From the NCBI GenBank assembly GCA_043228905.1, contig JBHGNT010000012.1, forward strand, positions 10,416,001 to 10,480,000: 64,000 nt of DNA, read 5' to 3'. Positions within the stretch are counted from its first letter, which is position 1; each line of letters opens with the position of its first letter. The notes under the pieces are model-generated. The model did not search any database. It saw nothing but the letters and a program-made list of their open reading frames with translations, and was not told the DNA's origin. Source of the DNA: Azolla caroliniana. Lineage: Eukaryota > Plantae > Polypodiophyta. Position numbers and translations under genes: made by a program. Positions 13,624 to 50,967 of the stretch are shown here, in pieces.

Positions 13624-16600
13624 TGTCGTGGTGTGACGTGTGCACTGTGAGAAAAAACGAGGTTCCACGGACATCTCATGAAATAATGTAAGAATTAAAT
13701 AAAATAATTATAAATAATAAGTAACTTGTAGTAACTTAGTGGTTAAGGCTTATAAGTATATGTAGAGAGGTGTAGAGTTTGAGTCCCTCTTCTTACAAAT
13801 CATTTTGCTTCCCTTCCATTTTTGTGATAAAGAAAGAAAAAAAAAACACGTAATTTAAAAATAAGCTCCACTTTCGTCTATAAGAGAGGGGTGATAGGGC
13901 TTATTGGAGGGTCGCCCATTTTGCCTTAGGGGTGTACTATTAGGGTTTCATCTTCTCCTCCTCTTCTTCTTGGGTTAGGGTTTTGTAGCCTTCCTTTCTC
14001 CTTCTTCTTTTCCATCTAGACTTGGGGTTTCAAAGCTTCTTCTACCTCCTCATCATATTAGAGAACTTGGAATTTTAGGGTTTTTAAGTTTACTTCTATT
14101 ATTCTACTTCTTACTCAAGATATTTTAGGGTTTGGATTTCCTAAACAACGGCTTTTTCGGCATCTCGATGGTGGTCAACTCGGTGGCCGGTTGCGGAAGG
14201 GAGGTTGTAGTGGCACGAGAGCTACTCCGAATCAAGGCAACATAGCCGTCGAAAGTAGTCGAGCTCGGAGCCCACTAGACTCACCTTCACCATATTATTT
14301 TCAGCCCTTTAGGGTTGATTAGCCATTTTTGAATAATGATGAAATTGATTCTGTGTAAGAAATAAAACCACTGAAATCGTGGTATTAAGCTTAATTTATA
14401 TCAAAACTTATGTATATTTCCCAATGTCTTTATCTTAATCTCCAACTTCCTCACCCCTTGTGTCTCCCCGGTCCAAGGCCCCGGCGGTCCCGTTCGAGTG
14501 ACACACGCAGACGAAACTTTACGACATTTGTGAACCCGACGTGAAAGAGCGGTAGGGGCGGACAAAGACGGACGAAGAAGATTTCATGGAGATGATGTCG
14601 AAGACGATGGTAGATTCGCGCGAGCAAAGGCGCAATGAAGGAAAAGAAAAAAAAAGTTGACAACCTTTTGCCCCACCACATCACTTTTTTTGGCACATGC
14701 CGGAGGATGTGTGGTTTGGTGGGGCTGGATGTCGTGGTGTGGCGTGTGTAGTGTGAGAAAAAGCGAAGCTTCACACACATCTCATAAAGTAATATATGAA
14801 TGAAAATAAAATAATATAAATAAAGTTGTAGTAGTTTAGTGGTTAGGGCTTATAAGTATACATGGGGAGGTGTAGAGTTTGAGTCTCTCTTGTGAAGAAT
14901 TAAGGAGTATTTTGCTCCCGTTCCATTTTTGTGGTAAAGGGAAAAAAAAAACATGTAATGTTAAAAATAGGCGCCTCTTTCCTCTATAAGAGGGGAGGAA
15001 TAGGGCTTATTATGGGGTCGCCCATTTTGTCTTCTAGGGGTGTACCACTAGGGTTTCATCTTCTTCTCCTCTTCTTCTAGGGTAAGGGTTTTGTAGCCTC
15101 CCTTTCTCCTTATCCCTTTTTCTTTCATCTTTTCCTTCTAGGGTTAGGGTTTAAGAGCTTCTTTCTACTTTTCTTCTTTTCTTCTCAACATATTCGAGGA
15201 ATTAGGATTTTAGGGTTTGAGAGTTTTTCTTCTAATATTCTACATCTTACTCAGGATGTTTTAGGGTTTGGATTTCTTAAAGAATGGCTTCTTCGGCATC
15301 TAGGTGGTAGTCAACTCGGTGGCCGGTTGTGGAAGGGAGGTTGTAGTGGCATGAAGGCTACTCCGAATCGAGGCAACATAGCTGTCGGAAGTAGTCGAGC
15401 TCGGCGCCCACTAGACTCGCCTTCGCTAGATTATTTTAGCCTTTGGTTTAATTATAACCGATTATTGTAATAACCACCGAAATCATGGTGTCAAGCCTAG
15501 CAATTGTAAAATAATAATAATAATACCCTAATTTATATCAAAACTTATGTTACAAATTTCCCCATGTCTTTGTCTTGATCTCCTACTTCCTCACTACTTT
15601 TGTCTCCCCGGTCCAAGGCCCCGGCGGTCCCATTCAAGCGACACACGCATGCGAAATTTTCACGACATTGGACCGCATGCGTGTGTCACTTGAACAAGAC
15701 CTCTAGGGCCTTGGACTGGGGAGACAAAAGAAGTGAGGATAGTGGGAGATTATGATGTCAATGACATGGGGAAAATATACATAAGTTTAGATATAAAATA
15801 GGCTTTAAACAACAATTAGGCTAAATACCACGATTTCATGGGTTTTTTTACATAGAATTGGTTTCATGATTAATAAAAACAGTTATGAATCAAAACGAGT
15901 TTTTTATTTTCTTTAGAATTGCTAGGGTTGATACCATGATTTCGGTGGTTTTTACAACAATCATTATGAAATAATCAAGGCTAAAATACTCGAGCGAAGA
16001 TGAGTCTAGTGGGCTCCGAGCTCGACTACTTCCGACGGCTATGCTGCCTCGATTCGGACTAACCCTCGTACCACTACAACCTCCCTTCCGCAATCAGTCA
16101 CCAAGTTGACTACCACCTAGATGCCGAAGAAGCCATTCTTTAAGAAATCTAAACCCTAAAATATCCCGAGTAAGATGTAGAATATTAGAAGAAAAACTCT
16201 CAAACCCTAAAATCCTAAATTATTCCTCTAGTATATTGAGGAGAAAAGAAGAAGCTCTCCAACCCTAACCCTAGAAGGAAAATATGAAAGAGAAAGTGAT
16301 AAGGAGAAAGGGAGGCCACAAAACCCTAACCCTAGAAGAAGAGGAGAAAAGATGAAACCCTAGTGGTACACCCCTAAGGCAAAATGGGTGACCCCCAAAT
16401 AAGCCCTATCCCTCCTCTCTTATAGAGGAAAGAGGAGCTTATTTTAACATTACATGCTTTTTTTAATTTATTTGGAGCAAAATATTCCTTGATTTGTAAA
16501 AAGAAAGACTTGAACTCTACACCTCTCTATATATACTTATAAATCTTAACCACTAAGCTACTACAAGTTACTTGTTATTATTATTATTATTTATTTATTT

Positions 16601-17109
16601 ATACATTATTTCATGAGATGTGCGTGGAACTTCGGTTTTTCTCACACTACACACGCCACACCGAGGTTCCACGCACATGTCATGAAATAATATATAAAAA
16701 ACAATAATAATAATAATAATAATAAGTAACTTGTAGTAGCTTACTGGTCAAGGCTTATAAGTATATGTAGAGATGTGTAGAGTTTGAGTCTCTCTTTCTA
16801 CAAATCAAGGAGGATTTTGCTCCCCTTCAAATTTTGTGATAAAGGAAATAAAATAAAATAAGCAATCAAGGAGGATTTTGCTCCCCTTCAATGTTTGTGA
16901 CAAAGGAAATAAAATAAGCTCCTCTTTCCTCTATAAGAGAGGAGGGATAGGGCTTATTTGGGGGAAAAGTGATGTGGTGAGGCCAAAGGTTGTCAACCTT
17001 TGTTTTCTTTCCTTCGTTGCGCCTTGCCCACACGAAATCAACCATCAACTTCGACGTAATCTCTTCTTCATCCATCTTTGTCCTCCCCTACCGCTCTTAC
17101 ACGCCGGGT

Positions 17110-17469
17110 CCACCAATACTTCTCCTTGAGCTTTGCAAAAGTTGCCCATATACCTCGATGACCTGCCCACACACTATCATGAAATTCAGCAATTAGTGTT
17201 TGTTGATCTTGTTTCTTGCACACCACTCGAAGTGTATTTCCATTCTTCCTCTTTGGAAACTTCCATATATGTCCTTCTTTGAGGAAGAACTTGTAGGCCT
17301 TCTTCCTAATTCAGTAGAAGTCTTCCTTTGACCATGATTAATCCTTTGTAGGAGAGCTTAAGTACTTGCCAATTTCGATGAATTCACCCTCATAATTTTC
17401 TACTTTAAACTCCTCTAGCACCCGAGCACAAGAAACTGTAAAGAAGTTTAGGCCAACATCCTCTTCATC
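17110..17469 (-). pseudogene. Captured gypsy pol fragment (RNaseH-integrase linker plus start of the integrase zinc finger) of the A/C lineage
   Basis: Minus-strand translation DEEDVGLNFF...YEGEFIEIGKYL...KFFLKEGHIWKFPKR...EFHDSVWAGHRGIWATFAKLKEKYWW aligns by eye with A2 pol and C (21776-21840). Confidence 0.85.
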
Positions 17470-17505
17470 AGAAGGTTGCATGTTCGATTCACGTCGGGTT
17501 CACCA
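17467..17505 (+). other. DNA copy of the 3' half of cytosolic tRNA-Trp (positions 38-76 including CCA), forming an extended PBS of a T LTR
   Basis: atcagaaggttgcatgttcgattcacgtcgggttcacca matches plant tRNA-Trp(CCA) as recalled, with one CG>CA change. It has an encoded CCA and lies 1 nt from the LTR end. Confidence 0.88.
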
Positions 17506-20500
17506 ATGTCGCGAAGTTTCGCTTGCGTGTGTCTCTCGAATAGGACCGTCGGGGCCTTGGACCGGGGAGACACAAGAGGTGAGGAAGTTGGAGATTAAGA
17601 CAAAGACATGGGGAAATATACATAAGTTTTGATATAAATTAAGCTTTAAACAATAGTTATGTTTAATATCATGATTTTGGTGGTTTTATTTCTTTCATAG
17701 CATCAATTTCATCATTATTCAAAAATGGCTAATCAACACAAAAGGGCTGAAAATAATATGGTGAAGGCGAGTCTAGTGGGCTCCGAGCTCGGCTACTTCC
17801 AACGGCTATGTTGCCTCGATTCGGAGTAGCTCTCGTGCCACTACAACCTCCCTTCCGCAACCAGCCATTGAGTTGGCTACCATCGGGATACCGAAGGAGC
17901 CATTGTGGAAGGAAACGAAGCCCTAAACTCTGTTGAGTAAGAAGTAAAATAGAATCTAAACTCATAAACCCTAAAAACCTAAGTCCTCTAGTATTTTGAG
18001 GAGAAAAGAAGAAGCTCTCAAAACCTAACCCTAGAAGGAAAAGATGAAAGAGAAAGGGATAAGGAGAAAGGGAGGCTACAAAACCCTAACCCTAGAAGAA
18101 GAGGAGAACAAGATGAAACCGTAATGGTACACCCCTAAGCCAAAATGGGCGACCCCCAAATAAGTCCTATCCCTCCTCTCTTATAGATGAAAGAGGAGCT
18201 TATTTTAACATTACATGCTTCTTCTTCTTCTTTTCCTTTATCACAAAAATTGAAGGGGAGCAAAACCCTCCTTGATTTGTAGGAAGAGAGACTCAAACTC
18301 TACACATCTCTACATATACTTCTAAGCCTTAACCACTAAGCTACTATAAGTTACTTATTGTTGTTGTTGTTGTTGTTTTTTATACATTATTTCATGAGAT
18401 GTGTGTGGAACCTTGGTGTGGCGTGGTGTGGCATGGTGTGGCGTGTGCACTGTGAGAAAACCTGAGGTTCCACACACATCTCATGAAATAATGTATAAAT
18501 AAATAAATAATAATAATAATAGTAACAAGTAACTTGTAGTCACTTAGTGGTTAAGATTTATAAGTATATGTAGAGAGGTGTAGAGTTTGAGCCTCTCTTT
18601 TTACAAATCAAGGAATATTTTGCTCCAAATAAATAAATAAAAGCATGTAATGTTAAAATAAGCTCCTCTTCCTCTATAAGAGAGGAGGGATAGGGCTTAT
18701 TTGGGGGTCGTCCATTTTGTCTTCTAGGGGTGTATCACTAGGGTTTCATCTTCTCCTCTTCTTGTTGGGTTAGGGTTTTGTAGCCTCCCTTTCTCCTTCT
18801 TCTTTTCCTTCTAGACTTGGGGTTTCAAAGCTTTTTCTACCTCCTCATCATACTAGAGAACTTGGAATTTTGGGGTTTGTTAGTTTATTTCTATTATTCT
18901 ACATCTTACTCAAGATAATTTAGGGTTTTGATTTCCTAAACAACGGTTTTTTCGGCATCTCGGTGGTAGTAAACTCAAAGGCCGATTGTAGTGGCACGAG
19001 GGCTATGAGGGCTACGAGGGCTACGAGGCAACATAGCCGTCGGAAGTAGTCGAGCTCGGAGCCCACTAGACTCGCCTTTGCTAGACTATTTTAGCCTTGA
19101 TTATTTCATAATGATTGTTGTAAGAACCACCGAAATCGTGGTGTCAAGCCTAAGAATTGTAAAAAAATAATAATAATACCCTAATTTATATCAAAATTTA
19201 TGTTACATATTTCCCCATGTCTTTGTCTTAATCTCCTACTTCCTCACTACTTTTGTCTCCCCAGTCCAAGGCCCCGGCGGTCCCGTTCAAGCGTCACACG
19301 CACGCGAAATTTTCGCGACATTGGTGAACCCGACGTGAAAGAACAGTAGGGGAGGACGGACACAGACGAAGAAGATTTCGTGGAGATGATGTCGAAGACA
19401 ATGGTGGATTTCACAAGGAAAGGGCGCAACGAAGACGAAAAGAAAACAAAAAAACAAAGGTTGACAACATTTGGCCCCGCCACATAACTTTTTTCTTTGG
19501 CACATGCCGGAGGATGTGCGGTTTGGTGGGGGTGGATGTTGTGGTGTGGCGTGTGCACTGTGAGAAAAAGTGAGGTTCCACGCACATCTTATGAAATAAT
19601 CTATAAAAAACAATAATAATAATAATAATAATAAGTAACTTATAGTATCTTAGTGGTTAAGGCTTATAAGTATATGTAGAGATGTGTAGAGTTTGAGTCT
19701 CTCTTCTTACAAATCAAGGAGGATTTTGCTCCCCTTCAATTTTTGTGATAAAGGAAATAAAATAAAAAAAGCACGTGATGTTAAAATAAGCTCCTCTTTC
19801 CTCTATAAGAGAGGAGGGATAGGGCTTATTTGGGGGTCGCCCATTTTGGCTTAGGGGAGTACCATTACGGTTTCATCTTCTTCTCCTCTTCTTCTAGGGT
19901 TAGGGTTTTGTAGCCTCCCTTTCTCCTTATCCTTTTCTCTTTCATCTTTTCCTTCTAGGGTTAGGTTTTGAGAGCTTCTTCTTTTCTCCTTAACATACTA
20001 GAGGACTTAGGTTTTTAGGGCTTATGAGTTTAGATTCTATTTTACTTCTTACTCAACAGAGTTTAGGGCTTCGTTTCCTTCCACAATGGTTTCTTTGGTA
20101 TCTCGATGGTAGCCAACTCGGTGGCTGTTTACGGAAGGGAGATTGTAGTGGCACGAGAGCTACTCCGAATCGAGGCAACATAGCCATTGGAAGTAGCCGA
20201 GCTCGGAGCCCACTAGACTCTCCTTCACCATATTATTTTCAGCCCTTTTGTGTTGATTAGGCATTTTTGAATAATGATGAAATTGATTCTATGTAAGAAA
20301 TAAAACCACCAAAATCGTAGTATTAAACGTAACTATTGTTTAAAGCTTAATGTATATCAAAACTTATGTATATTTCCCCATGTCTTTGTCTTAATCTCCA
20401 ACTTCCTCACCCCTTGTGTCTCCCCGGTCCATGGCCCCGGCGGTCCAATGTCGCGACCAAGCCCTAAAATATCCCGAGTAAGATGTAGAATATTAGAAGA

Positions 20501-21999
20501 AAAACTCTCAAACCCTAAAATCCTAATTCCTCGAATATGTTGAGAAGAAAAGAAGAAAAGTAGAAAGAAGCTCTTAAACCCTAACCCTAGAAGGAAAAGA
20601 TGAAAGAGAAAGGGATAAGGAGAAAGGGAGGCTACAAAACCCTTACCCTAGAAGAAGAGGAGAAGAAGATGAAACCCTAGTGGTACACCCCTAGAAGACA
20701 AAATGGGCGACCCCATAATAAGCCCTATTCCTCCCCTCTTATAGAGGAAAGAGGCGCCTATTTTTAACATTACATGTTTTTTTTTTCCCTTTACCACAAA
20801 AATGGAACGGGAGCAAAATACTCCTTAATTCTTCACAAGAGAGACTCAAACTCTACACCTCCCCATGTATACTTATAAGCCCTAACCACTAAACTACTAC
20901 AACTTTATTTATATTATTTTATTTTCATTCATATATTACTTTATGAGATGTGCGTGAAGCTTCGCTTTTTCTCACACTACACACGCCACACCACGACAAC
21001 GTGTGAAAGGGGTGAATGCCACACTCATATGCTAGCATGTTGTAAATAGGACTTAAATTAGAATCATAAAAGAAAAGCTAGATGTAAAGTTAAACATGTG
21101 CACATGTGATGTGCGCTCAAACATTTGTATATATAAAAATAAGACTAAAGCCTAGTAAGATTTGAGTGTATACAAAGGGGTGCAAGCAAGGCGTGTACCT
21201 TACACCTCCAAGATAAGAGACAATTGACATAGCATTAAGCTAAGATGTTTCTTTTATATTTATCTTCATCATTGTATTTTCCACATGTAAATTCTCATAC
21301 ATGAGAGGTTGGATGAGTGAGATGGTCATCATGCATCACATGCATTCCATACATTCCATGCATTGTATGTATGTCTTGTACCCTCACATGCATCATATGC
21401 ATGGGGACATCTATAAAGGAAGAAAAAGAAAAAGGATGGGGGGAAGCTATATATTGAAGGAAGAAACCTCTAATAAAAGAGGTAGTTATCTTATTGGTGA
21501 GGTATCTTGTCTCTCAAAATTGAAGTCAAGGGTTCTCTCTCCCTCAATCTGTCTCAGAATTGGAATCTCTATCTCTCTCTCTATCTCTCTCTCTCTATCT
21601 ATCTATCTTAAATTCTTTCTCGCTAAAGCTAGTAAAAACTTTGAATCCTTCCGGTCCAAGACCCCTGTGGTCCCGCTTCATTTCGCGAACATGCAAGGAT
21701 TTCCTCGACATCTTTCTTGGTAAACCCGACGTGAAGAACCCGACGAGGATCGACCAAAGATCCACAAGAGTCCTTGGGCAGGTCCTAGAGGAACATGGGC
21801 GACGTTTGCAAAGCTGAAGGAGAAGTACTGATGACCGAGCATGTACAAAGATGTACTTCATTTCGTGTCCACATGCGAAAACTGCTAAGTACATTCAAAC
21901 ATACATCACCGTGATGAGTTACGACCGATGTACCCACTCACCATACACTTCAAATGGAGGATGGATCTAGTCTCGATGCCAGTGGGAGTGGGACAAAGG

Positions 22000-35215: not shown

Positions 35216-38200
35216 CTAAGGAGCATGTTGTCGCATGCTAAATCGCCGAAAAAATACTAGGTTGAGGCGATGTACACAGTTGTTTATCTTATCAACAGAT
35301 CCCCCTCAGTACCGTTGAAAGGTGATGTCCCACAAAGGGTGCGGACAGGAAAGGATGTCTCCTACCGACATTTGAGGGTGTTCAGATGCCTAGTGTATAT
35401 GCATGTGCCTAAGAATCAGAGGTTGAAGCTTGATAGTAAGTCGAAGCCATGCATATTCATGGGTTACTTAGAAGATGAATTTGGCTACAGGCTATGGGAC
35501 TTAGTCGATAAGAGAGTAGTGAGGAGTCGGAACGTAGTCTTCTTGGAAGATAAAACGATTGAGGACTGGAAACAACAGAGGTCGGAATCGACTCCCCAGT
35601 CAGCCCCCACTACCACCGACTTAAGGCCAAGTGAACCGACACAGTCGGTTGTTCTGAGATAGCCATTCGGCACAGTCGAATCCGAGTCAGACGACTCAGA
35701 GAGATTGACCAACTATGAGTTTGAGTCAGCAGATTAGTTAAGATCGATTGAGGAATATGAGTTGGAGTCATCCAACCTTGACAAGCCAATCGACAGAGAC
35801 ATCCAAACTGAAGCCGGCAACGAGTGGAAGGAGATACCCACTTAGATAAAGGAGAGCACTAACAACATATGTCAGTCAATACATCCTCTTGACTGATGAA
35901 GGTGAGCCAGAGTGCTATGATGAAGCCATTGCCGACAAGCACAGAGAAAAATGGCTAAGTGCGATGCCAGATGAGATGGATTCTTTGCACAAGAATTATA
36001 CCTACTACCTAGTAGAGTTGCCAAAAGGTAAGAGAGCACTGAGGAATAAATGGGTGTACAACTTGAAGACTGGAGAAGTCAACAGTGCGCCCAGGTATAA
36101 ATCCCGCATAATGGTGAAGGGGTTCCAACAGAAAAAGGGTGTCGACTTCAACGAGATTTTCACACCAGTCGTGAAGATGACATCCATCCGAACTGTTCTG
36201 AGCATAGCTGCCAGCATGGATCTAGAGATCAAACAATTGGATGTCAAGACAACATTCTTGCATGGGGAGCTGGATGAAGAGATTTACATGTAACAGCTTG
36301 AAGGCTTTGAGTAAAAAGGGAAAGAGAACCTAGTGTGTCGACTGAAGAAAAGCTTGTATGGTTTGAAACAAGCTCCCCGCAAGTGATACAGAAGTTCGAA
36401 TCCTTCATGGTGGAACATGGGTTCCAGAAAACACAGGCGGATCATTGTGTGTTCGTCAAAAGGTACGATGAAGGTGACTTCTTGATTCTCTTATTATATG
36501 TAGATGATATGTTGATAGTTGGTCAACATACAAGGAAAATTGGTAGCTTGAAGAAAGCATTAGGCAAGTCGTTTGCCATGAAAGATCTTTGGACCGGCAA
36601 AGCAGATATTAAGGATGCACATAGTTCGAGATAGAACTAAAACAGTGTTGTGGTTGTCACAAGAGAAATACGTGATTAAGATCCTAGAAAGATTCAACAT
36701 GTCGGAAGCAAAGTCGGTCGGCTCTGTGTTATTGACTAGCTACAAGTTAAATGCAAAGCAATGCCCGAGAGGGGAGAAAGAAAAGGTTGAGATGAGGAAA
36801 GTACCATATGCCTCAGTCATCGGCAGTCTAATGTATGCTATGGTCTACACGAGACCAGTCATAGCTTTTGATGTGGAAATAGTAAGCCGATACATGAGTA
36901 ATCCAGGAAGAGAACACTGGGCAGCGGTGAAGTGGATACGCAGGTGCGTGAAAGGCACCTCGAGAGTATGCCTTAGGTATGGTGTCGGGAAGCCTATGCT
37001 CGAAGGGTTTACTGACTCGGGCATGTCGGGGGATGTAGACTCAAGCCGATCCACATCAGGGTACATAATGACCTATGCAGGGGGGGCAGTATCGTGGAAG
37101 TCTGTGGCCTTGTCGACCACAGAGGTAGAGTATATGGCAGCGGTAGAGGCTGGCAAAGAGCTTTATTTGGATCAGAAATTTTCTCAATGAGTTGGGGAGG
37201 AAGCAAAGGGAGTTCTTGCTTCATTGTGACAGCTAGAGTGCCATACATCTAGCAAAGAATGTTGCGTACCACCTGTTACCCGGCCAGCAAAGGAGTTAAA
37301 GACCAGAATGTGAAAGGGATTGTTATTCAGAATCTATTTTAATTAAGTAGAATAGTGGGACGTGAACAGACGGACCGGAATCGGTATGCCGATCCGGATC
37401 CGGACCGGTTCCAAACAGGTGCCGGTTGGCACCGTTTTGTACTCAGCACTAGTGACCTATATAAAGGCCCGGTTACAATGTAGAACTTTGACGGATAATT
37501 AATAGAGCTTCTTGTTTTATCTTTAATTGTTGATTACCGTTCTGTACTAATTGTTCTATCATACGCATGCATCAAATTTAATGCCGTATTGCTAAGTAGC
37601 CAATTAAGTCTGATTAATCGTTGTGTCTTAAGTTATCTCGCCGTAACACCCCTTTGGTGAAGTGTCTTCCGTAGACACCCTGTGTTAGGCCATTGTCCAG
37701 CCCTAAGGATTAACACAGTTTTTGGCGACCACGATGGGATTGATGGTGAGAGAGACGACAAGCATTGAGAAGCATTGTGGGGTGGGGGTGGTGCCTAGAA
37801 TGGCTCCACCCCCCTCCCAAGGGGGTTCAACGTTAAGGGGAGAGAGAGGAAGAGAGATGATGAGAGAGAGAGAGAGATTGAGAGAAATGGTTATTGTTTT
37901 CATTCATTCCCCATAAGGGGTTAAATAGGTACAAAGGGGTAGATCCACAAGGGTGCAAGCCCCTTGGCATTCACACCTAGTCACTCACTCACACCTCTTT
38001 GTATCTACCACACACACAGTTACATTCACACTCATAATCGTATAAAATCCCACATACATATCAACACATTACATCTTTCACCCTCACTTATCACACTTAT
38101 CAATCACCCGTACATCTCGTACGGTAACACAATATGGCACGCCCGTGGGAGAGTGCCTTGCACGTCAATCCCACATGCCTTGATCATAATTTTTATTCGA

Positions 38201-38223
38201 CTGGAATTTCCACCGGTCCTCTC

Positions 38224-38445
38224 AACGATCGACCCCCTCGATTAGAGTGCTGGATTCGAGCATCGTCGCCAGTCAGCGACTCTTCTGCGACACGAACATT
38301 CTCATTCTATCGACTTATGAACTTTGGTAACATCAACGATTGACTCCCTCGATCGGAGCGCTTGACTCGAACATCTCCGTCGGTCAGCGAATCTTCATCG
38401 ACACGAACATTCCCGTTCTGTCGTTTCACGAACTTCGGTAACATC
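38224..38445 (+). repeat. Two diverged ~111-bp direct repeats inside G
   Basis: aacgat(c/t)gac...gacacgaacatt...gaactt(t/c)ggtaacatc occurs twice. Confidence 0.8.
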
Positions 38446-39993
38446 ATTTGGGTCGTCAAAAAAACGTTGTATGTATGTATTTTCCTTTTGTTGATTTTGT
38501 GAGTTGTGTGTCGATCGCGTCCCTTTCTTTTAAGTTGATGAGTTTTCAAAATTTCGTAGGTGCCCTTTGATTTTTAAAAATTTTATTATATACCCTCGAG
38601 TTTTGAAAATTTCATTCAGTATCCCCAACTTTCTGAAATTTTAGGCTGCTACCCTCAACATTTTAAAATTTCTTCGCATGCCCCTTATCATTCTCTTTTT
38701 CCCTCTTTTTTCTTTTCTTGTTTCCTTCTTTTTTTCTCTTGCTTCTTGTTTTCTTCTTCTTCAACGTCGTTTCCTCTATGTTTTCTTTTTCTTCTTCCCT
38801 TTCTCTTTTTCTTTCCTTCATCTCCGTTTTTTGTTTTTTCTTCCTTCTTTCACCACCGTTATGTCCATTGTCCATGGTTATCACGCTCTATTCTTGTCTG
38901 TCGCTGTGTCTGTACGGCCTTCTCTGTTCATCTCCGTCTCTGTCTCTGTTTTCGTTTTTGTTTCCATCTCTGGCTCCGTCGTTGTCACCGTCACCGTCGT
39001 CATCACCATCACCATCCGTCGTCGTTATCTGTCCGTCATTGTCGTCTGTCGGTTCCTCCTCGTCCAGCATTGTCTGTCTGTGTCACTGACTCTGTCCGGT
39101 CCGTCTGTCCGAACTAGCCGTTATTGTCTTTCCGGCCCTCCAGCCACTGTTCGGTTGTTCGGCCCGTCGTTTCAACGTTGTCGTGCCTTTCGGCTCCGGA
39201 TCGTTGCGTGAGTCGGGTGGGAACCACAGAGGTCTTGGACTAGGAGAAAGAAGTTCGTGAGATAGAGATTAATTATGAATAAATAGCGAAGAGAAAGATA
39301 AGAAACTCGTGAATCACACGAGTATACTATATTAATCGGTACTTAGGGTGTTAAGAGAGAAGTAGATGTATAAATCGTGAATCCCACGAATAATTTTTGT
39401 ATTGATTAATACTTAATCCAAATAATCAACAACAACTACAATGTGCTCCCCATCCTTATATAGTGATGGGAGAGACTAAGCATAGCTACATGCTTTTTCT
39501 CATATGTTCATGCACACTAAATGTGCATGTGATGCTTTTTTTTTTATTTCCTAAGTATAGGGCTCATGCACGCTAGATGTGCATGAGTTATTTTTAGTGT
39601 CTCGTGTTTTTTCTTTTTCATATATTAAAGAAATACACGATTTACCTTTTAATAAAGGTATGCATAAATAAAGGTCTTATACATATTAAATCTATATTTA
39701 AAACACTTAAGATAATTTAATGTAATGGTAAGGTTGGGGTTTGTCAACGTGGAGGTGCAGAGTTCGAATCACGCCCTACGCAGTAGTGAGTATTTCTTTT
39801 TTTTACATTTATGTCTCTTTATCCGGCTCTTCCTTGCCGGTATGCCGTTTTCCTCCTTGCCGGTATGCCGTTTTTCCTCCTTGCCGGTATGCCGTTTTCC
39901 TCCTTGCCGGTATGCCGTTTTCTTCCGGTTCTCACCGAGCACTCCATTCTCTATCCGGAGGGACAAAAATATAATTTCCACATAGTGTGCAAC

Positions 39994-42900
39994 CTACACT
40001 ACGACACTCGCCCCCTCCAAACCCGCACATCCTCCGGTATGTGCCGAAGTTCTTGATTCTTCGTATCCGTCTTCATCCGAAGCTTCCTCCGATTCTCCCC
40101 TTATGTCGACTATGAGTTGTAATCCACTTTCTTCGCTTCCCGCATCATTGTGGTCTTCGTCTGATTGCTCCTCGTTGTCGGCCTCGACTTGGATCACATA
40201 AGGTTTGTCGTCGGTCCGCTTCTTGAAAATCTTCACCCGCTTCCCGGCTATAGGCACTCGCAGTATTGTTCCATCCAACTCGGACAGTCGGTACGTCCCG
40301 TTGTCGAAGACCTTCCAAACCTCGTACGGCCCGAACCACCTTTTCGCGAATTTCCGCATCGTTGTATGTTGATGGTCCAAGCTACTATCATAGACGATCA
40401 CCCAATCTCCTTCTTCAATCCTCCTCGGTCGTAGTCGGTGCTTTGTGTCGAACCGACGTTTTGTTCTGGAACCGTGCTTCTTGTTGTCGGCGTGACGCTT
40501 CCGCTACATCTTTCGGTCTTCCCTCCAGTTGTCGTATCCGGACCGCTAGTAGTTCTTCCCGGCTCATCTCTTCCTTCCACGGTAGTATTGTCCATGTCGC
40601 GATTGCGGTTTCCGTTGGCATTACCGGTGCTTGTCCGGTCATGAGTTCTGCCGGCATGTAACCGGTCACGGAGCTATGCGTCGTCCGATCCGCCCATAGT
40701 GCATACGGAAGCATTTGTGGCCAATCCTTCACCCTTCCGTCGCATGCCTTCGCAAGTGCTTTCACGATCGGACTATGTCCTCGTTCGATCTTCCCGTTGG
40801 CCTCCGGATTGTAGGCCGTTGTCAACGTTAACCGAACTCCATGTTTGGCGAAGAATCCCCTAGCTTTGTCCGAGTCGAGTTCTCCCCGGTCCGCAATCAC
40901 TTGTCCTACGCAGCCGTACCTACAAAACACTTCTTCCAAAAGAAATTGGCACACCGTGTGCACGTTTTCCTCCGAAGCGCTCGACCTTCAACTTGGTTTG
41001 TGAGATCTTCTCGAGCTAACACCAAGTATTTCTTTTGTCCAATCCCGGTCGGCATAGCTACAATGTCGACCATCCACTTGAAGTTGATTGACGGTGAGAA
41101 TGTCGGATGCAACTCATCTCGGTGTCGGACCCCGGAGTAGACTTGACATTTCTCGCAGCTTTCTGTGAACTCCGCGACATCTTTATACATGTTCTTCCAC
41201 CAATATCTTTGCTTGATTTTCACAAAAGTTGCCCATGTTCCTCGATGTCCAGCCCAATCGGATTCGTGGAACTCGGACATTATCCGGTTTCGTTGCTCTT
41301 TCGTCCCGACTACTCGAAGTGGTATCCCATCCGGTCTTTTCGGCGTCCTCCATATTAAACCGTTTTCCAAGAAGAACTTTTGGACTTGCCTCTTCTTCCT
41401 TCGGATCTCGGCTCTCCTTTCTTTATCATTGGTTGAATCCTCGACCTCTTGTAGCATCTTCCCGATCATCAAGGTTTCCCCCTCGTATTCTTCTTCCCGG
41501 AATTCTCGGATCACGTTCACTCGGCATATGTGTTCTGACGTGAAGTAGTCTTCGGAAACTTCTTCATTATCTGATTCGGTTATGTCGTCTTCAAACCGCG
41601 CCCTCGATAACATGTCCGCTACCGCGTTGTCCTTCCCCGAGATGTGTCGAACCTCCGGATTAAGTGACTTGACATATGCAATCCACCTTAGCATAGCCAC
41701 ATCCGGTATCGTACAACACCGCATCATCCCGAGTATCGGAAGACAATCCGTCTCGATCACCACTTCAGCTCCGATCAAATAATCCCGATCCGATTTTATC
41801 GCCGACATGACTCCCCACAATTCTCTTTTGACTTGTGCATATCCGCGTTGCCTTTCGTTGAGGACCTTTGCTCCAAATCGGATCGGATACCGCGAACCAT
41901 CCGAGTCGGCTTGATTGATGACCCACCCGATACCGGTTGGACTTGTATCAACCGTTACTATGATTGGCCGCTCGTAGCTTGGCTTCTTAAGTGATTCCGC
42001 CCTCCATAGTGTCTTCTTGAGCTTCCTCATGGCTTTAGTGTGTTCCGGTTTCCACTCGAATTTCTTACCTTTCCGCAACAAGTGATAGAGCGGGTCCGCT
42101 ATATGTGCATAGTGCGGAATCCATATGTGATAGAATGCACACGCACCCAGAAACCTTCGGACTTCCGATGTTGACTCACATACTTCCTTCATAGCTTGAA
42201 TCGCATCGATCTTTGTTGGTGACGGTCTTCGGCCGTAGGGTCCACATAGATGTCCGACCACCAATATTTCTTCTTGCCCGAATGCCGATTTCTCCCCGGA
42301 AAGTGTTAGGTGCACATCTTCTAGCTTTCGCAACACTTTCTCGCAATCATGAATATGGTCGACCACGAACTTTCGGCATCCCCGATCATCCATAGTCTCA
42401 TCTTTTTCTTCCACCGCGCATCCTTTCATCGGAATGTCATCTAGAAACGGCATCGTTATCTCCGGAATGCAATCTCGAAGCACCTTGTTCATCGCATTCA
42501 TCATATGTGCAACCGAGTTTGTCGCTCCTTGTGGTAGTGTGCACATTCGAACTAGTCCTATCGGTGTCCGCATGGTAGTGATGTCTCGGCTCTCCACGGC
42601 TAGTTGGAATTGGTCATACCCCGAGTATAGGTCCCCGATGGAGTATATCGCACGTCCGGCAAAAGCTTCCGCGAATTCGTCCACTATCGGACCGACTCCC
42701 GAGTTCCGGATCGTGACCTTGTTCACCGGTTGCAAGTCTTGGATGAATCGGAGTGACCCATTCTTCTTCGGAACCGTAAACCATCGATTTGAGTACGGAG
42801 CACTTGATGGCTCTAGAATCCCCATCGCCACCTTCTCCTTGAGCAAGTCGATGACTTTCGGAATATGTGCCCGTGGCACCGGAATCGGCTTCAGGTTCCA

Positions 42901-43602
42901 CGGTACATGATCAATCGTGAAAATCACCATCGGCTCCACTATCTTTGGATCAATGCATCCGATCTCCCTCGATGTGAACGCGAATGCTTTGCCATGTTGC
43001 TCCAACATCTCTCGAAACCGTTTTTCTTCTTCTTGTAAGAGGAACCCACCTCCACCGATCCGAAGTTTCTTCCGGGTCTCATCTGTGAAGGCATGTCCGA
43101 TATCCACGGACTTCCGAAGTGTCGGATCTCCCGAGACTTCTTTCTTCTTTTGTTCGCTATCGGCGGGTAGTGGTCCCGCGGCCGGTTTCACCTTCTTCTC
43201 CACGGTCTTGTATTTCGTACTTACCATTGCTTCTTCTTTGCGGAGCGCATCCGGCCCCATTTTCGCAACGATCTCGTACATCTCGACCGATTCCACCAGG
43301 ACTACCCGGTTCCCTTGGCTTTTATCTTCCGCAAGCTCTTCAAGCCGTTGTAGTGTATTCCCATAGAACACTTCCTCGATCACTCCCACGATTTCTTCGT
43401 CTTCTTTTATTATTGATGCCGACCGTAACTTATCCTCCACTTGTCGGTATTGTTTCTTCATTCCTCCGGTTACGGCCGTGTACGTAGATGCCCCATCCGG
43501 GCCGATTCGTACTTGTTTTGCTCCGAGAGTTTTCTTCCTGTGTGGGGTATCAGGGCTTCTCGGACTATCACTTCCCCACTCCGCAACAGTCCTCTTTAAA
43601 AA
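39994..43602 (-). pseudogene. pol (RT-RNaseH-integrase) of A2; open except for two 1-bp indels in integrase
   Basis: ORF 40906-43461 (QGATNS, FLDD, TVDTS, HESDWAGH..CEKC) continues in 40415-40963 and 39994-40401. The frame is open upstream to 43602. No chromodomain. Confidence 0.88.
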
Positions 43603-45635
43603 TCAATTCTCACTTGGGACAAGAGTTCCCTCTTGTTCCTTTCGTGATTTGCCGGCACTGTTAGGAATTGGACGGATTTCCCTCCGTTTTGGCTCCGAAT
43701 TCGCGCAAAAGCCGCACCACTATCGAGCACCTTCGTCTCCATCCGTGAAGCCGTGATAAAGGGTTGGCCGAGGATGACAGAATGTGAAACCTCATCCTGC
43801 ACAAAGAAATTTTGGTCAATTTCGACATCCCCGATCTTTACCGTCACATCCGGACAAGCCGCAAATAGGTCTTCTGTCGTTTTCGTGGCTGCCCGAATCT
43901 TCCATCCATGGTTGGTATTTATAGGCCACTTCCCCTTTCGGTAGAACTCCTTGGACATCAAGTTGATCTCCGATCCGTGATCAATCAATGCTAGCACGGG
44001 TTCTTTGATGTTGCCGATTCGGACCGGAGTCTCCGTAGTCGCACGTGCCCAGTGTGGCCTTGTATAGTGGGAGTTCGGAATTTCGCCTTCCACTTCGGTG
44101 TCGTTCATTGAAACGGTATTTGCATTCACCCTTGGAGCATTTTCCTCCGTACTTTGTCTCTTCCTTTTCACAAGATCCACGAGAAGATCGTGAAACTCCT
44201 TCTTCGCTATTCCGAGTAGTTCCCGCAGCGAAAAATCGACCCGGCTATCCAAGATTCTTTCCTCGAACACTCTTTTCAAGTCGGTTTGTTGTTCTATGTC
44301 CGAGGCGAGCTTGAATGCCGGAGTCGCCTTTTCTTTTCCCTTACCTCCGGAGTTCCAGCTTTCCGATATCTTCGATGGTCCGGCCGCATCCTCCGTGCGC
44401 CGTCGTTTCTCGTCCACATACACCTCATGTAATTGACACAGGGCGTATATGCTATTCTTGTCGACAGGGCACTCCCATCCCGTAGCTTCCCGGACGCCTT
44501 CCGCGGTGTTTCGGATATCGTTGGAGTCGGTTTTCTCGGTGTTTCCTAGCACCTCCGGCCAGAAAGACGCCTTCGCTCCCGTTGACTCCCCGACACATAT
44601 TCCCGCGGTTGTCGCATAGTTGCTTCTTGCCGCTAACTCCTCCTCGAGCACCTTCTTCATGCCGCCTTTCCGGAAGTTCGGTCGGAGTGGCTTCCGAGAG
44701 TCCATCGAATGAATCCGATTTCCCTCGTAGTAGATGAGATCCCGTCGTAGCGCCTCCTTATGGTCGTCGCAATCCCTCCGATCGTGTTCGGCGCTATCGC
44801 ACCATATGCACCGTCGATCCGTATATTTGGAGCTTGTGGGGCGGTCATCCGACTTCTTCACCATCGCGATCTTTAGATTCTCCATCTCCTTCAGCAGCTG
44901 CTCCAACGTAGACGCGTCGACTCCCTTCTCGGCCGTAATCTCCCGAGCCCTCGGTTGATGGTCTTCCAGTCCCGTTCTCGGTTTCGGAATCGGTTCCGAA
45001 ACCCTCTTTTCTTCGTTGGCAAGCCATTGCCCCCTCTTCGTGTACCGCGCGACGATATCCCGCACGCTTTCCCATGTTTCGGTGAGGCCGCTTTCGGTGG
45101 TCGTGTCCTCAAGAAGCACTCCGAGATCTTTCCGGTCCCGGACGTCCACAGCTCGCAAAAACATGATGACTTTGTCCGGTGCAAGAATAGTTTGATCTCT
45201 CGCGGACAACCTCCCGAACCGACTTTCGAATGTCGAAAACACTTCGAGGACCTTCAGCCCCTTACCTGACGTTTCCACCCAATCCTCGAATCCCCTCCGC
45301 GTTGCCTTGGAGGAGTCCTCGATGGCAAACGTGGTCTTTAACGCCTCTTCGAATGCTTCCCACGTCGGATTTTGTTGTTGCAACCCGTGGATACTCCCTT
45401 GAAGCCCGTCGGTCGCCACCCGGTTAAAGGATGTCACTTGCAGTCCTTCCGAAGCCCGGCACTGGAGCATCTCCGCCTTGTAGTCCTGCAAATATCGCGA
45501 CACATCCTTACCATTAAATTGCCCGTTGCGTTGCACGAGCCGCTCTACTGATGCCGAAATCTCCGACATCGTGCGTTGTTCTTGAAGCATCCGTTCGAAC
45601 ATCGCCATCATATTGTTAGCTTGTTGAGCCTCCAT
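43596..45635 (-). CDS. Gag-protease ORF1 of A2
   Basis: Uninterrupted ORF from ATG 45635, with Zn knuckle CIWCDSAEHDRRDC and aspartic protease LIDHGSEINLM...ILGQPF. Confidence 0.88.
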   Translation of the reverse strand: MEAQQANNMMAMFERMLQEQRTMSEISASVERLVQRNGQFNGKDVSRYLQDYKAEMLQCRASEGLQVTSFNRVATDGLQGSIHGLQQQNPTWEAFEEALKTTFAIEDSSKATRRGFEDWVETSGKGLKVLEVFSTFESRFGRLSARDQTILAPDKVIMFLRAVDVRDRKDLGVLLEDTTTESGLTETWESVRDIVARYTKRGQWLANEEKRVSEPIPKPRTGLEDHQPRAREITAEKGVDASTLEQLLKEMENLKIAMVKKSDDRPTSSKYTDRRCIWCDSAEHDRRDCDDHKEALRRDLIYYEGNRIHSMDSRKPLRPNFRKGGMKKVLEEELAARSNYATTAGICVGESTGAKASFWPEVLGNTEKTDSNDIRNTAEGVREATGWECPVDKNSIYALCQLHEVYVDEKRRRTEDAAGPSKISESWNSGGKGKEKATPAFKLASDIEQQTDLKRVFEERILDSRVDFSLRELLGIAKKEFHDLLVDLVKRKRQSTEENAPRVNANTVSMNDTEVEGEIPNSHYTRPHWARATTETPVRIGNIKEPVLALIDHGSEINLMSKEFYRKGKWPINTNHGWKIRAATKTTEDLFAACPDVTVKIGDVEIDQNFFVQDEVSHSVILGQPFITASRMETKVLDSGAAFARIRSQNGGKSVQFLTVPANHERNKRELLSQVRIDF

Positions 45636-45651
45636 CTCCTTGCCACCCGTC

Positions 45652-45669
45652 TTCACGTCGGGTTCACCA
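45652..45669 (-). promoter_or_regulatory. 18-nt PBS complementary to tRNA-Trp
   Basis: TGGTGAACCCGACGTGAA, 4 nt from the LTR; the same PBS occurs in C and T. Confidence 0.88.
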
Positions 45670-48007
45670 ACTGTGTCGTGCCTTTCGGCTCCGGATCGTT
45701 GCGTGAGTCGGGTGGGAACCACAGAGGTCTTGGACTAGGAGAAAGAAGTTCGTGAGATAGAGATTAATTATGAATAAATAGCGAAGAGAAAGATAAGAAA
45801 CTCGTGAATCACACGAGTATACTATATTAATCGGTACTTAGGGTGTTAAGAGAGAAGTAGATGTATAAATCGTGAATCCCACGAATAATTTTTGTATTGA
45901 TTAATACTTAATCCAAATAATCAACAACAACTACAATGTGCTCCCCATCCTTATATAGTGATGGGAGAGACTAAGCATAGCTACATGCTTTTTCTCATAT
46001 GTTCATGCACACTAAATGTGCATGTGATGCTTTTTTTTTTATTTCCTAAGTATAGGGCTCATGCACGCTAGATGTGCATGAGTTATTTTTAGTGTCTCGT
46101 GTTTTTTCTTTTTCATATATTAAAGAAATACACGATTTACCTTTTAATAAAGGTATGCATAAATAAAGGTCTTATACATATTAAATCTATATTTAAAACA
46201 CTTAAGATAATTTAATGTAATGGTAAGGTTGGGGTTTGTCAACGTGGAGGTGCAGAGTTCGAATCACGCCCTACGCAGTAGTGAGTATTTCTTTTTTTTA
46301 CATTTATGTCTCTTTATCCGGCTCTTCCTTGCCGGTATGCCGTTTTCCTCCTTGCCGGTATGCCGTTTTTCCTCCTTGCCGGTATGCCATTTTCCTCCTT
46401 GCCGGTATGCCGTTTTCTTCCGGTTCTCACCGAGCACTCCATTCTCTATCCGGAGGGACAAAAATATAATTTCCACATAGTGTGCAACCTACACTACGAC
46501 AACGTCATCGTCGTTCCGGTCGTCGGCTGTCCGGCCATTCCTATCGCTTTTCGGCGTGGTGTCGCCGTTCTAGTTGTTGTCCAACCGTTCCAGCTGTCTG
46601 TCCAGTCGCTGATTTTTGTTGCCGCCGGTTGTCTGTGTCCGACCCTATCTCCCGGTCCTCCATTCGTTTGTCTGGCTCGTCCGGTCCGTCCATCTTCGTC
46701 ATTAATTTTTCGCCGCCACCGCTGATTATTTGTCGCCACTCCGGTCGTTGTTCAGCTACTGTCCCAGCCATTTGTCCGTTGTCTTCCGGTCGTGCGTTCG
46801 GACCGTCCTCCCGGCCAACTGTCTGCTTCCCCGGCCTTGTCCGACCCTCCGTCCGCTCCGGCTGCTACAACCATTGTCCGGCTATTCCGATCGGTTTCTA
46901 ACCCTTCCGACCGCTCTTTCCGCTCTTCGGCTGATATTTGGCCGTTGTTCCTGTTGCTATCTAGCCCCCTCTCTAGTCGAAACTCTCCTGATGCGACCGC
47001 TGCTTTGTCGGGTTTTGTGGTCGTCTCCGTCGGCCGGCCGTCATCAAGCGTCGTCATCTGGTTGTCGTATCGGCATTTGTCCGGTCATTGGCTGTTGTTT
47101 AGCCACTATTCGACCACTCCAACCGCTCCAACTGTTGTCTAGCTGCTCTTCAGCCATTGTTCGGCCATTCCGGCCGCTCCGACTGCTGGTTCATTTTTCT
47201 AGCCATTGGTCATTCTTTCCACTGCCCTTTCTCTTTGTCACCGTCATCTCTGGCAGACCCTTCATTTTTCCGTCTTGTTGTCTGGTCCTCCTTGTTCTTC
47301 TTTGGTGTTCTCCCGTATCCTTCTATTTGTTGTTGATGATTTTAGCAATGGTGACCCTAATGATTATGATTACAACGAAGAATGATGACCCTAATGATGA
47401 TGATTACAACGAAGAATGAGTGCACATTCTAATTCCTTCATATGCATCATCTTGGAGATCATGGTTTATGAACAAACCATGCTTATTATGAGTGCCACCA
47501 TGATATGAATCATGCTCACATGCGTTATGGCGGTTAATGTAGGTGTTAGTATCAGGGTTAGTATAAGGGCCAGAGGCACGCACTTAGGGTTAGTACACAA
47601 AGAGTTTGGGCTAAACTTATAAGGCCCATGGGTTGTAGGAGAAACTAGGGCTAGGGTATCTAGTGCAAGGAATGGTAGAGGAGTTAGGGTTAGGAAAACA
47701 GGAACAGAAACTAGGGTTAGGGTTACAGGAGTAGTGATTATCCAAAGACCAAAAATGATGATAATGCTCGGAGACATCATCAATCTACCATTTTCATGAT
47801 TTCTCGCACATTTCTTGTACATTGTCGGTTTGATTTCTTGCTCTCTCGCACATACTTCTACCGGATATCATTCTGTGAGTTCCTCTTGCACATCATACTG
47901 CCGCGGATAATTCGTCAACACCATCTCCAAAGGGGTCGGCTTAATGGTCGCCAAAAGGGGGACCGGCTTGGTGGGACAAATGGGCAAAACACACAGCCGA
48001 GCTCTAG

Positions 48008-48523
48008 TTGCTAAGGGCGGACGCGGAAAACCGGCAGAAGGATGGCGACGACTGTTACATGCTAACAAAGGAGGACTTCACCGCCGTAAGAGATGAGTTA
48101 GCCGAAGATTTTGTAACTCTGGCGGAGGAACAATCAGTAGTGGTCTGGCAACTGGTAGCACAGCTAGACGATGATCGATTGGATGCTCAAATCCAGTTTG
48201 AAAGCTATAAGCGGACCAGGCTACGGAAAGAAGACGCAAAGCAGGTGGCGACCATCAACCTTAGCGATGAGGAGCCATCGTCGGAGCAAGGACCGGACGG
48301 AGACAAGGCTGGGGCGAGTCCACCAGAGTCAAATCCGGCAGAGCAGCTAACAGAGGAATCACCGCCACAACCGCCGGTACCGGGACCCGAACAGATGCCA
48401 TCTAAGGAGCAACAGTCAGAGGAGCCAAAGCCATAACAGCAACAGCCACAACAACAACAGATTTCCGAAGAACCATTGGATACCGTGGAGCAGAGTATTC
48501 TGGATATCTTGGACGAAGGCTAA
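48008..48523 (+). pseudogene. Orphan acidic/Gln-Pro-rich ORF remnant near the right LTR of G
   Basis: 142-codon open stretch that continues in frame past one stop as QQPQQQQISEEP...DEG*; no recognisable domain. Confidence 0.4.
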
Positions 48524-50967
48524 GGGGCAGATAGTGGGATTCGACATACAAGGTACTGTCCCACGGGCGTGCCATGTGTTACCCGGCCGGCAAAGGAGTT
48601 AAAGACCAGAATGTGAAAGGTATTGTTATTCAGAATCTATTTTAATTAAGTAGAATAGTGGGACGTGACCAGACGGACCGGAATCAGTATGCCGATCCGG
48701 ATCCGGACCGGTTCTGAACATGTGCCGGTTGGCACCGTTTTGTACTCAGCATCAGTGACCTATATAAAGGCCTGGTTACAATGTAGAACTTTGATGGATA
48801 ATTAATAGAGATTCTTGTTTTATCTTTAATTGTTGATTACCGTTCTGTACTAATTGTTCTATCATACGTGTGCATCGAATTTAATGCCATATTGCTAAGT
48901 AGCCAATTAAGTCTGATTAATCGTTGTGTCTTAAGTTATCTCGCCGTGACACCCCTTTGGTGAAGTGTCTTCCGTAGACACCCTGTGTTAGGCCATTGTC
49001 CGGCCCTAAGGATTAACACCACTCCCGAACCAAGCATATACAAAGGAGATATCATTGGTTACGGGAGAAAGTGGAGGAAGGAGAGTTTACCCTTGTGAAT
49101 ATCCATACTGATGACAATGGATCCGAAATTCTAACAAAAAACCTACCGATGGACAGACTCAGTGTTTGTCGACAGAGGACATAAATAACATACCCCTCCC
49201 CACTGGAGTGAAGGGGGAGTTTGTAAGGAATATGTCCCTCTAGTGGGAGGAGTCGACTACTCGGAAAGAGCCGACAGTCGAAGACAATGGAGCAGTCGAA
49301 TGGTCGGATAAGAGCCGATAGTCGGTCGACTGATTAGTAATACTATTATTTTTATTATTAGATAATAATAATGGCCATGATTTTAAATAGCCCATTCTGT
49401 GTATTAGTATAAATACACCTAGGGAAAACAGAACCGAAGAGTGTATGAACTGAGTGAAGTGAAAAGAGAGAGATAGTGAGTGAGGGGCACTATAGTTGTG
49501 TTCGTAACAACAGACGTAAAGAGCCATGTGAGGTTGATACACTCCGCACACAGAGGGTTGTACTCTGATATCTCCATTGTATATCCACTGTATAGTGAAG
49601 TTTTGTTCTCCGTGGTTTTCTCCACGTTAAATCTGTGTACACTCTTTTCATTCTATGTTTCCAAGTTTTGCATTTCGGCGTATTCTTTTCTTGTGAAATA
49701 ATGATTAGTACATTGTGCATTGCCAACAGAGCTTATGTATGGACAAAAGCCGGTAATGCCTATCGAAAGGACGATCGCCTCATGGGTAGTGATACCATGG
49801 GAGAATGAGATGAGTCGAGAAGAATTATTAGCGGCGCAGATAAGGCAGCTTGAAAGAAGGCCTGAAGATCTAGAAAATGCGTGAAAGATAATGGAGGCAG
49901 CTCGAGTGAAGGACAAGATTCGGTTCGACAAGACACATCGATTGCGTCCCAAGAAGATCGAAGATGGAGATTGGGTATTGGTCTACGACAATAGCCTTGA
50001 CAACCAACACAAGACAACAAGAATGTTCGCAAGAAGGTGGTTCAGATCGTATGTGGTGACGAGTGCCAACGACAATGCCACCTACCACCTCGCGGAGCTA
50101 GACGTATCAAGGTTGTTCATACCCATTGCGGGGAAAAGAGTAAAGATCTTCAAGAAAAGACAAGGTGAAGGTTTTGACCTCGATGACCTCAACATATGGT
50201 AGGGCGGAACCCACAAACGTGAGCGAGGTCAACGAGGACGTGGAGGAATCGGATTGATCACCGTAGCCGAAATCTCACACTCTCTTCTTGGCATGTACCG
50301 GAGGACGTGTGGTTTGGTGGGGGTGGATGTCGTGAAGATTTTCGGCAACGGTGTGAAAATCACGTGGAAAGGAGAAAACCGAGAAGGTGCAATGTGCACA
50401 TGCATGAAAGGGGTGATGATTACACTCGTATATTAGCACATTAATGTGCACATGGGTTTTGAACCTTACACCCCCAAGCTAGGAGACAATTGACATACCA
50501 TTAAGCTAAGATGTTTCTTTAAAGTTTATTTTCATCATTGTACTTTTCACATGTAAATTATCATACATGAGAGCTTGGATGAGTGACATAGTCATCATGC
50601 ATCACATGTGATACATGAACGCCAGATGGCAAGACATGCATTGTATGCATGTCTTGTACCCTCACATGCATCATATGTATGGGGGCATCTATAAATGATG
50701 AAAAAGAAAAAGGATGGGAGGCAAGCTATGTATTGAACGAAGAAACTTCCAATAAAAAATCTAGTTTTCTTATTGGTGATGTATCTTGTCTTTGAATATT
50801 GAAGTCAAGGGTTCAATCTCTATCTCTCTCAATCCGTCTCTCTCTCTCTCTCTCTGTATCTATCTTAAATACTTTCTCGCTAAAGCTAGTACAAACTTCG
50901 AATACTCCCGGTCCATGGCCTCGATGGTCCCGCTTCATTTCGCGAACATGCGAGGATTTCCTTGACA

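Follow-up and report, generated by a model that had tools for sequence, protein, structure and literature searches.

Why is the primer-binding site (PBS) of one plant retroelement 39 nucleotides (nt) long when the others of its lineage match their primer, a transfer RNA (tRNA), over about 18? The question is raised by a locus in a 64,000-nt stretch of the Azolla caroliniana (Polypodiophyta) genome (assembly GCA_043228905.1, contig JBHGNT010000012.1, positions 10,416,001 to 10,480,000; hereafter the window), in which a DNA copy of tRNA-Trp(CCA) lies beside a long terminal repeat (LTR). The element carrying this copy is non-coding, non-autonomous and rearranged, and appears to derive from a Phygy-type Ty3/gypsy element. 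Very probably, the 39 nt are over-extended plus-strand strong-stop DNA, made by a reverse transcriptase (RT) that was likely arrested before 1-methylguanosine at tRNA position 37 (m1G37) and likely switched template onto pol sequence. This reading is based on the CCA, its PBS-like placement against the U5 side of the LTR, an end at position 38-43, the 3-6 nt shared with pol and the return to the family's PBS and internal region some 350 nt further on; across the genome, the end points of over-long copies depend on base 37 of the primer.

A copy of mature tRNA-Trp at the LTR end

An ungapped alignment pairs the copy with host tRNA-Trp(CCA) positions 38-76, the reference being the gene predicted by ARAGORN at L008:1463-1534 with CCA appended (Table 1). 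Its sole mismatch is G51>A at a CpG (17480), and A58, at 17487, was read correctly. Base 37 of the gene, a G, is unmatched, as is the sequence further 5'. None of the intact Trp genes listed encodes the CCA that the copy possesses, indicating that the template was a finished, mature tRNA. In addition, only base 17506 lies between the copy and the TG (17507) with which the reverse-complemented 3' end of the LTR opens, so the copy is the PBS of the element, lengthened by 21 nt.

Such lengthening is exceptional. The other Trp PBSs in the window (19322-19339, 45652-45669, 14530-14545 and 21718-21735) match over at most 18 nt; the genome contains 5,527 exact 18-nt Trp sites, of which 30 were examined and all 30 ended at exactly 18 nt, and six of the 5,527 extend to at least 23 nt free of mismatches. 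That any of these sites would by chance be extended by 21 nt with no more than one mismatch has a probability of about 8e-8. A first-pass annotation of the window had described a 39-nt tRNA-Trp match with CCA against the LTR in a lineage whose other PBSs match about 18 nt, and both observations hold, the match running past 18 nt against the host gene itself. The same annotation took the last three nt to be common to the tRNA and the pol fragment, which is the case in 9 of 14 pol relatives; in two, including the best match L085, the overlap is 6 nt, in one it is 2 nt and in two it is absent. Since the overlap amounts to 3-6 nt, the stop is bounded only at 38-43, and the narrower interval of 38-41 proposed earlier had to be corrected by the 6-nt overlap with the closest relative.

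Neither ARAGORN nor Rfam reported a tRNA in the window, Rfam giving only sub-threshold microRNA-like matches on fold-backs, and no RNA data set was listed as containing the stretch. A tRNA gene or a short interspersed nuclear element (SINE) was rejected as the identity of the copy, considering that no 5' half with an A box and no cloverleaf is seen, ARAGORN reporting no tRNA in the window, and that neither the 40 pol matches scored nor the pattern matches included an amplified sibling sharing the junction.

Over-long copies from primers with G37

Forty over-long, LTR-adjacent tRNA copies from three primers were collected from the genome, comprising 10 from tRNA-Trp, 5 from tRNA-Arg(TCG) and 25 from tRNA-Arg(TCT). 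The Trp copies came from five pattern searches, with ends called by scored extension (+1 for a match, -3 for a mismatch). All ten carry CCA at LTR ends, have ten different junctions and end at 37, 38, 38, 39, 39, 41, 41, 51, 51 and 53. The copy ending at 37 is a fold-back whose extra base was supplied by the acceptor, and the two ending at 41 reach 39 and 38 if a mismatch at 40 is tolerated. They are joined to pol, to gag-side sequence, to the 3' end ahead of the polypurine tract or to an LTR; where overshoot copies join at or just before the polypurine tract (L001 and L139), miniature LTR-tRNA-LTR elements result.

The second G37 primer, tRNA-Arg(TCG), has 81 exact sites in total, of which 62 end at 18 nt, 11 at 19, 3 at 20 and one each at 22, 23, 26, 39 and 41. 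Its over-long set, drawn from the exact sites and two further copies from a generic T-loop search, ends at 36, 38, 38, 51 and about 49, the end at 36 again being a fold-back with acceptor-supplied bases. Nine of the first 13 G37-primer copies end within one 6-nt window (a uniform null gave this in 15/200,000 trials, and constant-hazard nulls gave 3e-4 or less), and end points scattered at random across copies are therefore not what the genome displays. Three copies from two primers (L003, L079 and L104) all end exactly at 51; we know of no modification at position 50 common to those two tRNAs.

Several rows were dropped before counting: L082 as a chance match, L138 for want of any extension, L137 and L140 as gene or pseudogene, L272, L273 and L290 as duplicates, L254 as lying outside the 3-mismatch filter of the Arg(TCT) census, and L156 and L171 (23 and 22 nt) as within chance. 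L333, an internal rejoin, was counted as 18 nt.

Passage of primers with A37

A block at methylated G37 predicts that a primer with A37 is passed, and a hairpin or a cut tRNA half predicts no passage. The generic T-loop search set up to test A37 primers gave 117 matches, 100 of them listed and 50 loci examined, and revealed a tRNA-Arg(TCT) primer with A37 and A26. Among its 62 distinct sites, 25 copies are over-long and end at 1, 1, 1, 1, 2, 6, 13, 14, 19, 20, 21, 21, 21, 21, 23, 24, 26, 29, 33, 34, 36, 38, 39, 44 and 49. With cut-offs of 41 and 35 that were chosen after the data were seen, none of the 10 G37-primer copies that reach 41 passes to 35 or beyond, compared with 20 of the 23 Arg(TCT) copies (Fisher 3e-6), and the two arginine primers alone differ in the same way (0/3 versus 20/23, p 0.008). 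The A37 primer thus gets through the anticodon loop, as predicted by the G37 block that the first-pass annotation had put forward.

The Arg(TCT) sites at L268, L269, L278 and L282, together with the normal sites L322, L325 and L335, have gag or RT reading away from the LTR and are therefore true minus-strand primer sites. Fifteen of the 25 over-long copies have LTR-end sequence in common with the oriented ones (by eye), and all 13 of these that reach 41 passed. Six copies at LTR ends are nearly full length with CCA (L268, L269, L276, L284, L288 and L289); ARAGORN calls them tRNA genes, and their upstream flanks are unlike gene flanks beyond simple repeats. Two of the six run directly into RT sequence, the same layout as in the window copy. 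L288 lies in a tandem duplication, the second copy of which is without CCA.

Two further A37 copies with CCA, both putatively LTR-adjacent, derive from tRNA-Asn, one passing A37 and ending at 27 before G26, the other ending at about 48. For initiator tRNA-Met, none of the four matches extending past position 55 had CCA. Matches to His and Asp tRNAs with CCA looked like array genes and were left uncounted as fossils.

Probable misreading at position 58

Position 58 is T (six) or G (three) in 9 of the 40 over-long copies, a rough share, some searches having allowed any base at 58 and one having required A. In searches that allowed one mismatch anywhere, 58 accounted for 3 of 9 LTR-adjacent mismatches (p 0.003) and for 2 of 3 (p 0.005). 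Laboratory RTs are described as making prominent T errors at 1-methyladenosine (m1A) and showing high arrest at m1G (PMC7144921). By analogy, the T and G excess would be the known m1A error signature. The window copy, with its normal A58, may come from an unmethylated primer or from correct read-through. It had been claimed that this copy records the modification state of its primer; the window copy alone cannot show its own state, and what stands is the inference from the set of copies.

Proposed mechanism and alternatives

In HIV-1 (human immunodeficiency virus type 1), m1A58 is where plus-strand synthesis halts, lesser stops occur at 55, 54 and 37 (PMC13191261), and the position-37 product cannot serve strand transfer (PMC13191261; PMC8599865). 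Human or bovine tRNA-Trp has m1G37 (PMC7200024), plant TRM5 makes m1G37 (PMC6344853), and a TRM5-family domain is encoded in the Azolla genome. By analogy with other organisms, G37 is presumably m1G and A58 presumably m1A in this plant. The RT would have passed A58, overshooting the normal plus-strand stop, unwound the T and anticodon stems and arrested before m1G37. The 21-nt overhang would have been unable to pair with the 18-nt minus-strand primer site, and its unpaired 3' end would have primed by microhomology on co-packaged pol sequence. After about 350 nt of pol, synthesis would have rejoined the family's own PBS and internal region, and the product would have entered the chromosome once, without multiplying.

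Several points weigh against this reading. In the window copy, A58 is correctly read and the stop is only bounded; none of four public DNA contig sets compared over 16950-17700 spans the junction, and they are uninformative; the surrounding 7 kb are heavily rearranged, and later repair may have reshaped the junction. As to the G37 primers, the scored end is 39 or 41 in 4 of the 10 Trp copies, and 5 of the 15 G37-primer copies end at 49-53, a region not tied to any modification. The control has weaknesses beyond its post hoc cut-offs: 5 of the 25 Arg(TCT) copies end at 33-39, which implies that the anticodon loop slows RT even without G37; 2 of the 25 abut U3 instead of U5 and 8 are not oriented; and the Trp and Arg primers serve different lineages with different enzymes. 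Finally, tRNA-Trp is not named as a substrate in the accessible portions of the plant TRM5 papers (PMC6344853; PMC6874348).

Among the alternatives, it is unlikely, although conceivable, that RT made the over-long copy and that host end-joining or recombination, instead of a template switch, joined it to pol and the rest of the locus. The microhomology is just 3-6 nt, inverted LTR pieces are intermingled at the locus and no matching target duplication flanks it, and one Arg(TCG) copy is joined to a copia RT stretch of another family, all of which would suit host joining. However, all ten Trp copies join retroelement sequence, often by fold-back, as expected inside a particle, and the window copy returns to its family's own primer site. 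Moreover, host joining would alter the joining step only, leaving the reading of the end point unaffected.

Less probable by far is that a 3' tRNA half, produced by cleavage in the anticodon loop, served as primer, so that RT reached the 5' end of its template at about 38 and no modification block is needed. tRNA halves accumulate in plants (PMC6874348, a report on 5' halves), and five of the 25 Arg(TCT) copies likewise end at 33-39. Yet the 20 of 23 Arg(TCT) copies that run past the arm, six nearly to full length, show that whole tRNAs are the usual template, and the G37-primer ends lie at 38-39, the apparent ends at 36 and 37 being explained by acceptor sequence.

We see hardly any room for an RT that stalled on the anticodon stem-loop or dropped off randomly, its end being set by chance microhomology, an explanation largely refuted by the A37 control. 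Ends do range over 37-41 with short homologies at most junctions, but a block by the hairpin should leave ends at the stem's foot, position 44, which the copies run through, Arg(TCT) has the same arm and passes it, and the random nulls do not exceed 3e-4. Capture of a genomic tRNA gene piece or tRNA-derived SINE at the DNA level, or an assembly chimera, can be dismissed as scarcely credible: the genome does have tandem Trp gene and pseudogene arrays and the junction is unspanned by public contigs, but the copy holds a CCA absent from the listed intact Trp genes and sits in PBS register, the nearby inverted arms are 94% alike and not identical, ten junctions are independent, and the flanks of the six near-full-length Arg(TCT) copies differ from gene flanks as stated above. 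Over-extended strong-stop DNA is retained as the most probable reading of the window copy.

Anatomy of the locus and lineage of the element

Read along the element strand, the LTR is followed by the 39-nt tRNA copy, then by about 350 nt of pol, a second imperfect PBS and the internal region of the family (Table 1). The LTR lacks about 36 nt of its U3 start and is fused head-to-head with another LTR. The pol fragment is 95.8% identical to L085 over 358 nt, its source being an autonomous relative. In the non-coding family, the internal region normally comes right after the PBS (14526-14688, 19320-19492); here it breaks off ahead of the polypurine tract, and a piece of inverted LTR follows. The three departures of the second PBS from a normal site each fit pol (gapped alignment by eye), and this mosaic of primer site and pol may, speculatively, be a repaired heteroduplex. 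Both edges of the rearranged locus read NCGN, but their four bases differ.

Table 1. Features of the over-long tRNA copy, its surroundings and its coding relative in the window
Feature	Positions	Strand	Evidence or remarks
DNA copy of mature tRNA-Trp(CCA) 38-76 with CCA	17467..17505	+ (tRNA sense; extended PBS of a - strand element)	38/39 identical
Canonical 18-nt PBS, tRNA 59-76	17488..17505	-	identical to 5,527 genomic sites, 19322-19339, 45652-45669
21-nt overshoot, tRNA 58 to 38	17467..17487	-	alignment to host gene
LTR, U5 end adjoining the tRNA copy	17507..18413	-	self-BLAST to 13660-14545, 19573-20449
pol fragment with in-frame stops (linker between RNase H and integrase; integrase zinc finger)	17110..17469	-	tblastn to the window's pol
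Junction microhomology with pol	17467..17472	-	3 nt long (17467-17469) in the majority of relatives, 6 nt long in the closest
Second imperfect PBS, 15/18; second junction	17098..17115	-	overlaps look-alike stretch of integrase frame
Internal region of non-autonomous family	16965..17097	-	80% to 14526-14688, 72% to 19320-19492
Coding relative of same lineage	39179..46501	-	LTRs 99.6% identical, 18-nt Trp PBS 45652-45669, 4-bp NCGN target duplication

The locus is part of about 7.4 kb (13624-20998) in which pieces of the LTRs of a single non-coding family lie in either orientation, with several fold-back palindromes; the inverted arms 14730-15271 and 20457-20998 are 99% identical, and the whole could be either a concatemer or a later rearrangement. 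Elsewhere in the window (21718-21999), a Trp PBS is followed closely by integrase sequence, a deletion from the primer site without overshoot.

The Phygy lineage is described as short elements with a tRNA-Trp PBS in 81% and a 4-bp NCGN target duplication (PMC6317226). The coding relative shows these traits and the domain order RT-RNase H-integrase, with no chromodomain match (Pfam on 40906-43602, the frame stopping early in integrase and the C-terminus lying outside the scan), so the lineage appears to be Phygy-like, non-chromovirus Ty3/gypsy. Unlike the Phygy elements described, the copy lies in a non-coding rearranged derivative, and over-long primer sites find no mention in the available part of PMC6317226.

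Other tRNA-derived sequences

Among the Arg(TCT) copies, 8 of 25 end at 19-24, four of them exactly at 21, beside a D-loop uridine, and this stop is a candidate second block. Over-long copies make up about a quarter of exact Arg(TCT) sites (15/55 by coordinates, duplicates included) versus about 0.1% for Trp. Two over-long Arg(TCT) copies, L271 and L274 (G000 C2:12004220 and C2:12742718), extend to 20 and 21, one with T58, and abut the U3 end of the LTR; in these, the joining of a tRNA to the plus-strand 5' end would be fossilised directly, which bears on dual-tRNA priming. The locus L333 (G000 C3:8094145) has an 18-nt Arg(TCT) site, seven element-type bases and then the tRNA again from about 49 to 22.

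Plant initiator tRNA carries a bulky ribose modification at position 64. Initiator-Met primer sites (including L107-L136) number 437 at 18 nt with at most one mismatch, 21 of them exact; C or T at position 64 accounts for most mismatches among those listed, and 25 of the 30 examined end at 59. Large tandem tRNA-gene arrays with decayed copies lie on G000 C5, C8 and C16 (Trp), C4, C11 and C22 (Arg(TCT)) and C8 and C15 (Asp), with CCA encoded in the Asp arrays and some His genes. In the window, an element at 37264-49019 has a tRNA-Arg(TCG) PBS after its left LTR (37723-37740), a sense copy of the 3' end of tRNA-Arg(TCT) immediately ahead of the right LTR (about 48556-48574), the expected place of a polypurine tract, and 8 tRNA-like bases ahead of the left LTR.

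Relation to known systems and implications

No genome survey of over-long primer copies, and no publication describing such over-extended DNA in a genome, was found in a literature search that covered subscription and older virology papers thinly. In spleen necrosis virus vectors, Pulsinelli and Temin reportedly observed faulty plus-strand transfer, with deletions from the primer site after mis-terminated strong-stop DNA. A close likeness is the over-extended strong-stop DNA of HIV-1 (products P1 and P3-P5), in which RT likewise passes A58 and stops at 55, 54 or before modified 37, an unmodified template being copied to the 5' end (PMC13191261; PMC8599865). In HIV-1, the product ending at position 37 is known from biochemistry and is said neither to template nor to integrate, whereas in Azolla it has become fixed in a chromosome; the putative block is G37 here and 2-methylthio-N6-threonylcarbamoyladenosine (ms2t6A37) in HIV-1, and three primers can be compared here.

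tRNA-Gly DNA at HIV-1 LTRs in Jurkat clones similarly represents mature, CCA-bearing tRNA copied at an LTR end, with deletions (PMC12220202), as does the tRNA-Gly DNA at the LTR in the Moloney murine leukaemia virus (MMLV) circle of Colicelli and Goff (cited in PMC12220202). In contrast to the Azolla copies, those were single cell-culture events, non-cognate and nearly full length, and the available sections of that report give no end-point series or primer comparison. RT signatures in tRNA sequencing also resemble the present ones, with arrest before m1G and N2,N2-dimethylguanosine (m2,2G) and the m1A misreading noted above, but they were obtained in vitro with laboratory enzymes (PMC7144921), whereas here the enzymes would be endogenous and the record stored in the genome. 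Single tRNA copies at retroviral LTRs are therefore known, and what is added is the comparison of G37 with A37 primers within one genome.

These results indicate that a product deemed a dead end in HIV-1 biochemistry does reach plant chromosomes. End points that track base 37 within one genome allow an in vivo test of the tRNA modifications at which an endogenous RT is arrested, and they offer both a way to infer modifications in species that have never been assayed and a source of deleted elements. They also carry a warning for tRNA annotation, as the six near-full-length Arg(TCT) copies at LTRs pass as genes in ARAGORN. Taken further, and with about even chances of being right, plant genomes could be a readable fossil tRNA-sequencing experiment, with ladders at A58, G37, G26 and the D loop that would allow modification maps from assemblies alone, and overshoot would found deleted non-autonomous elements and CCA-encoding tRNA copies that are taken for genes.
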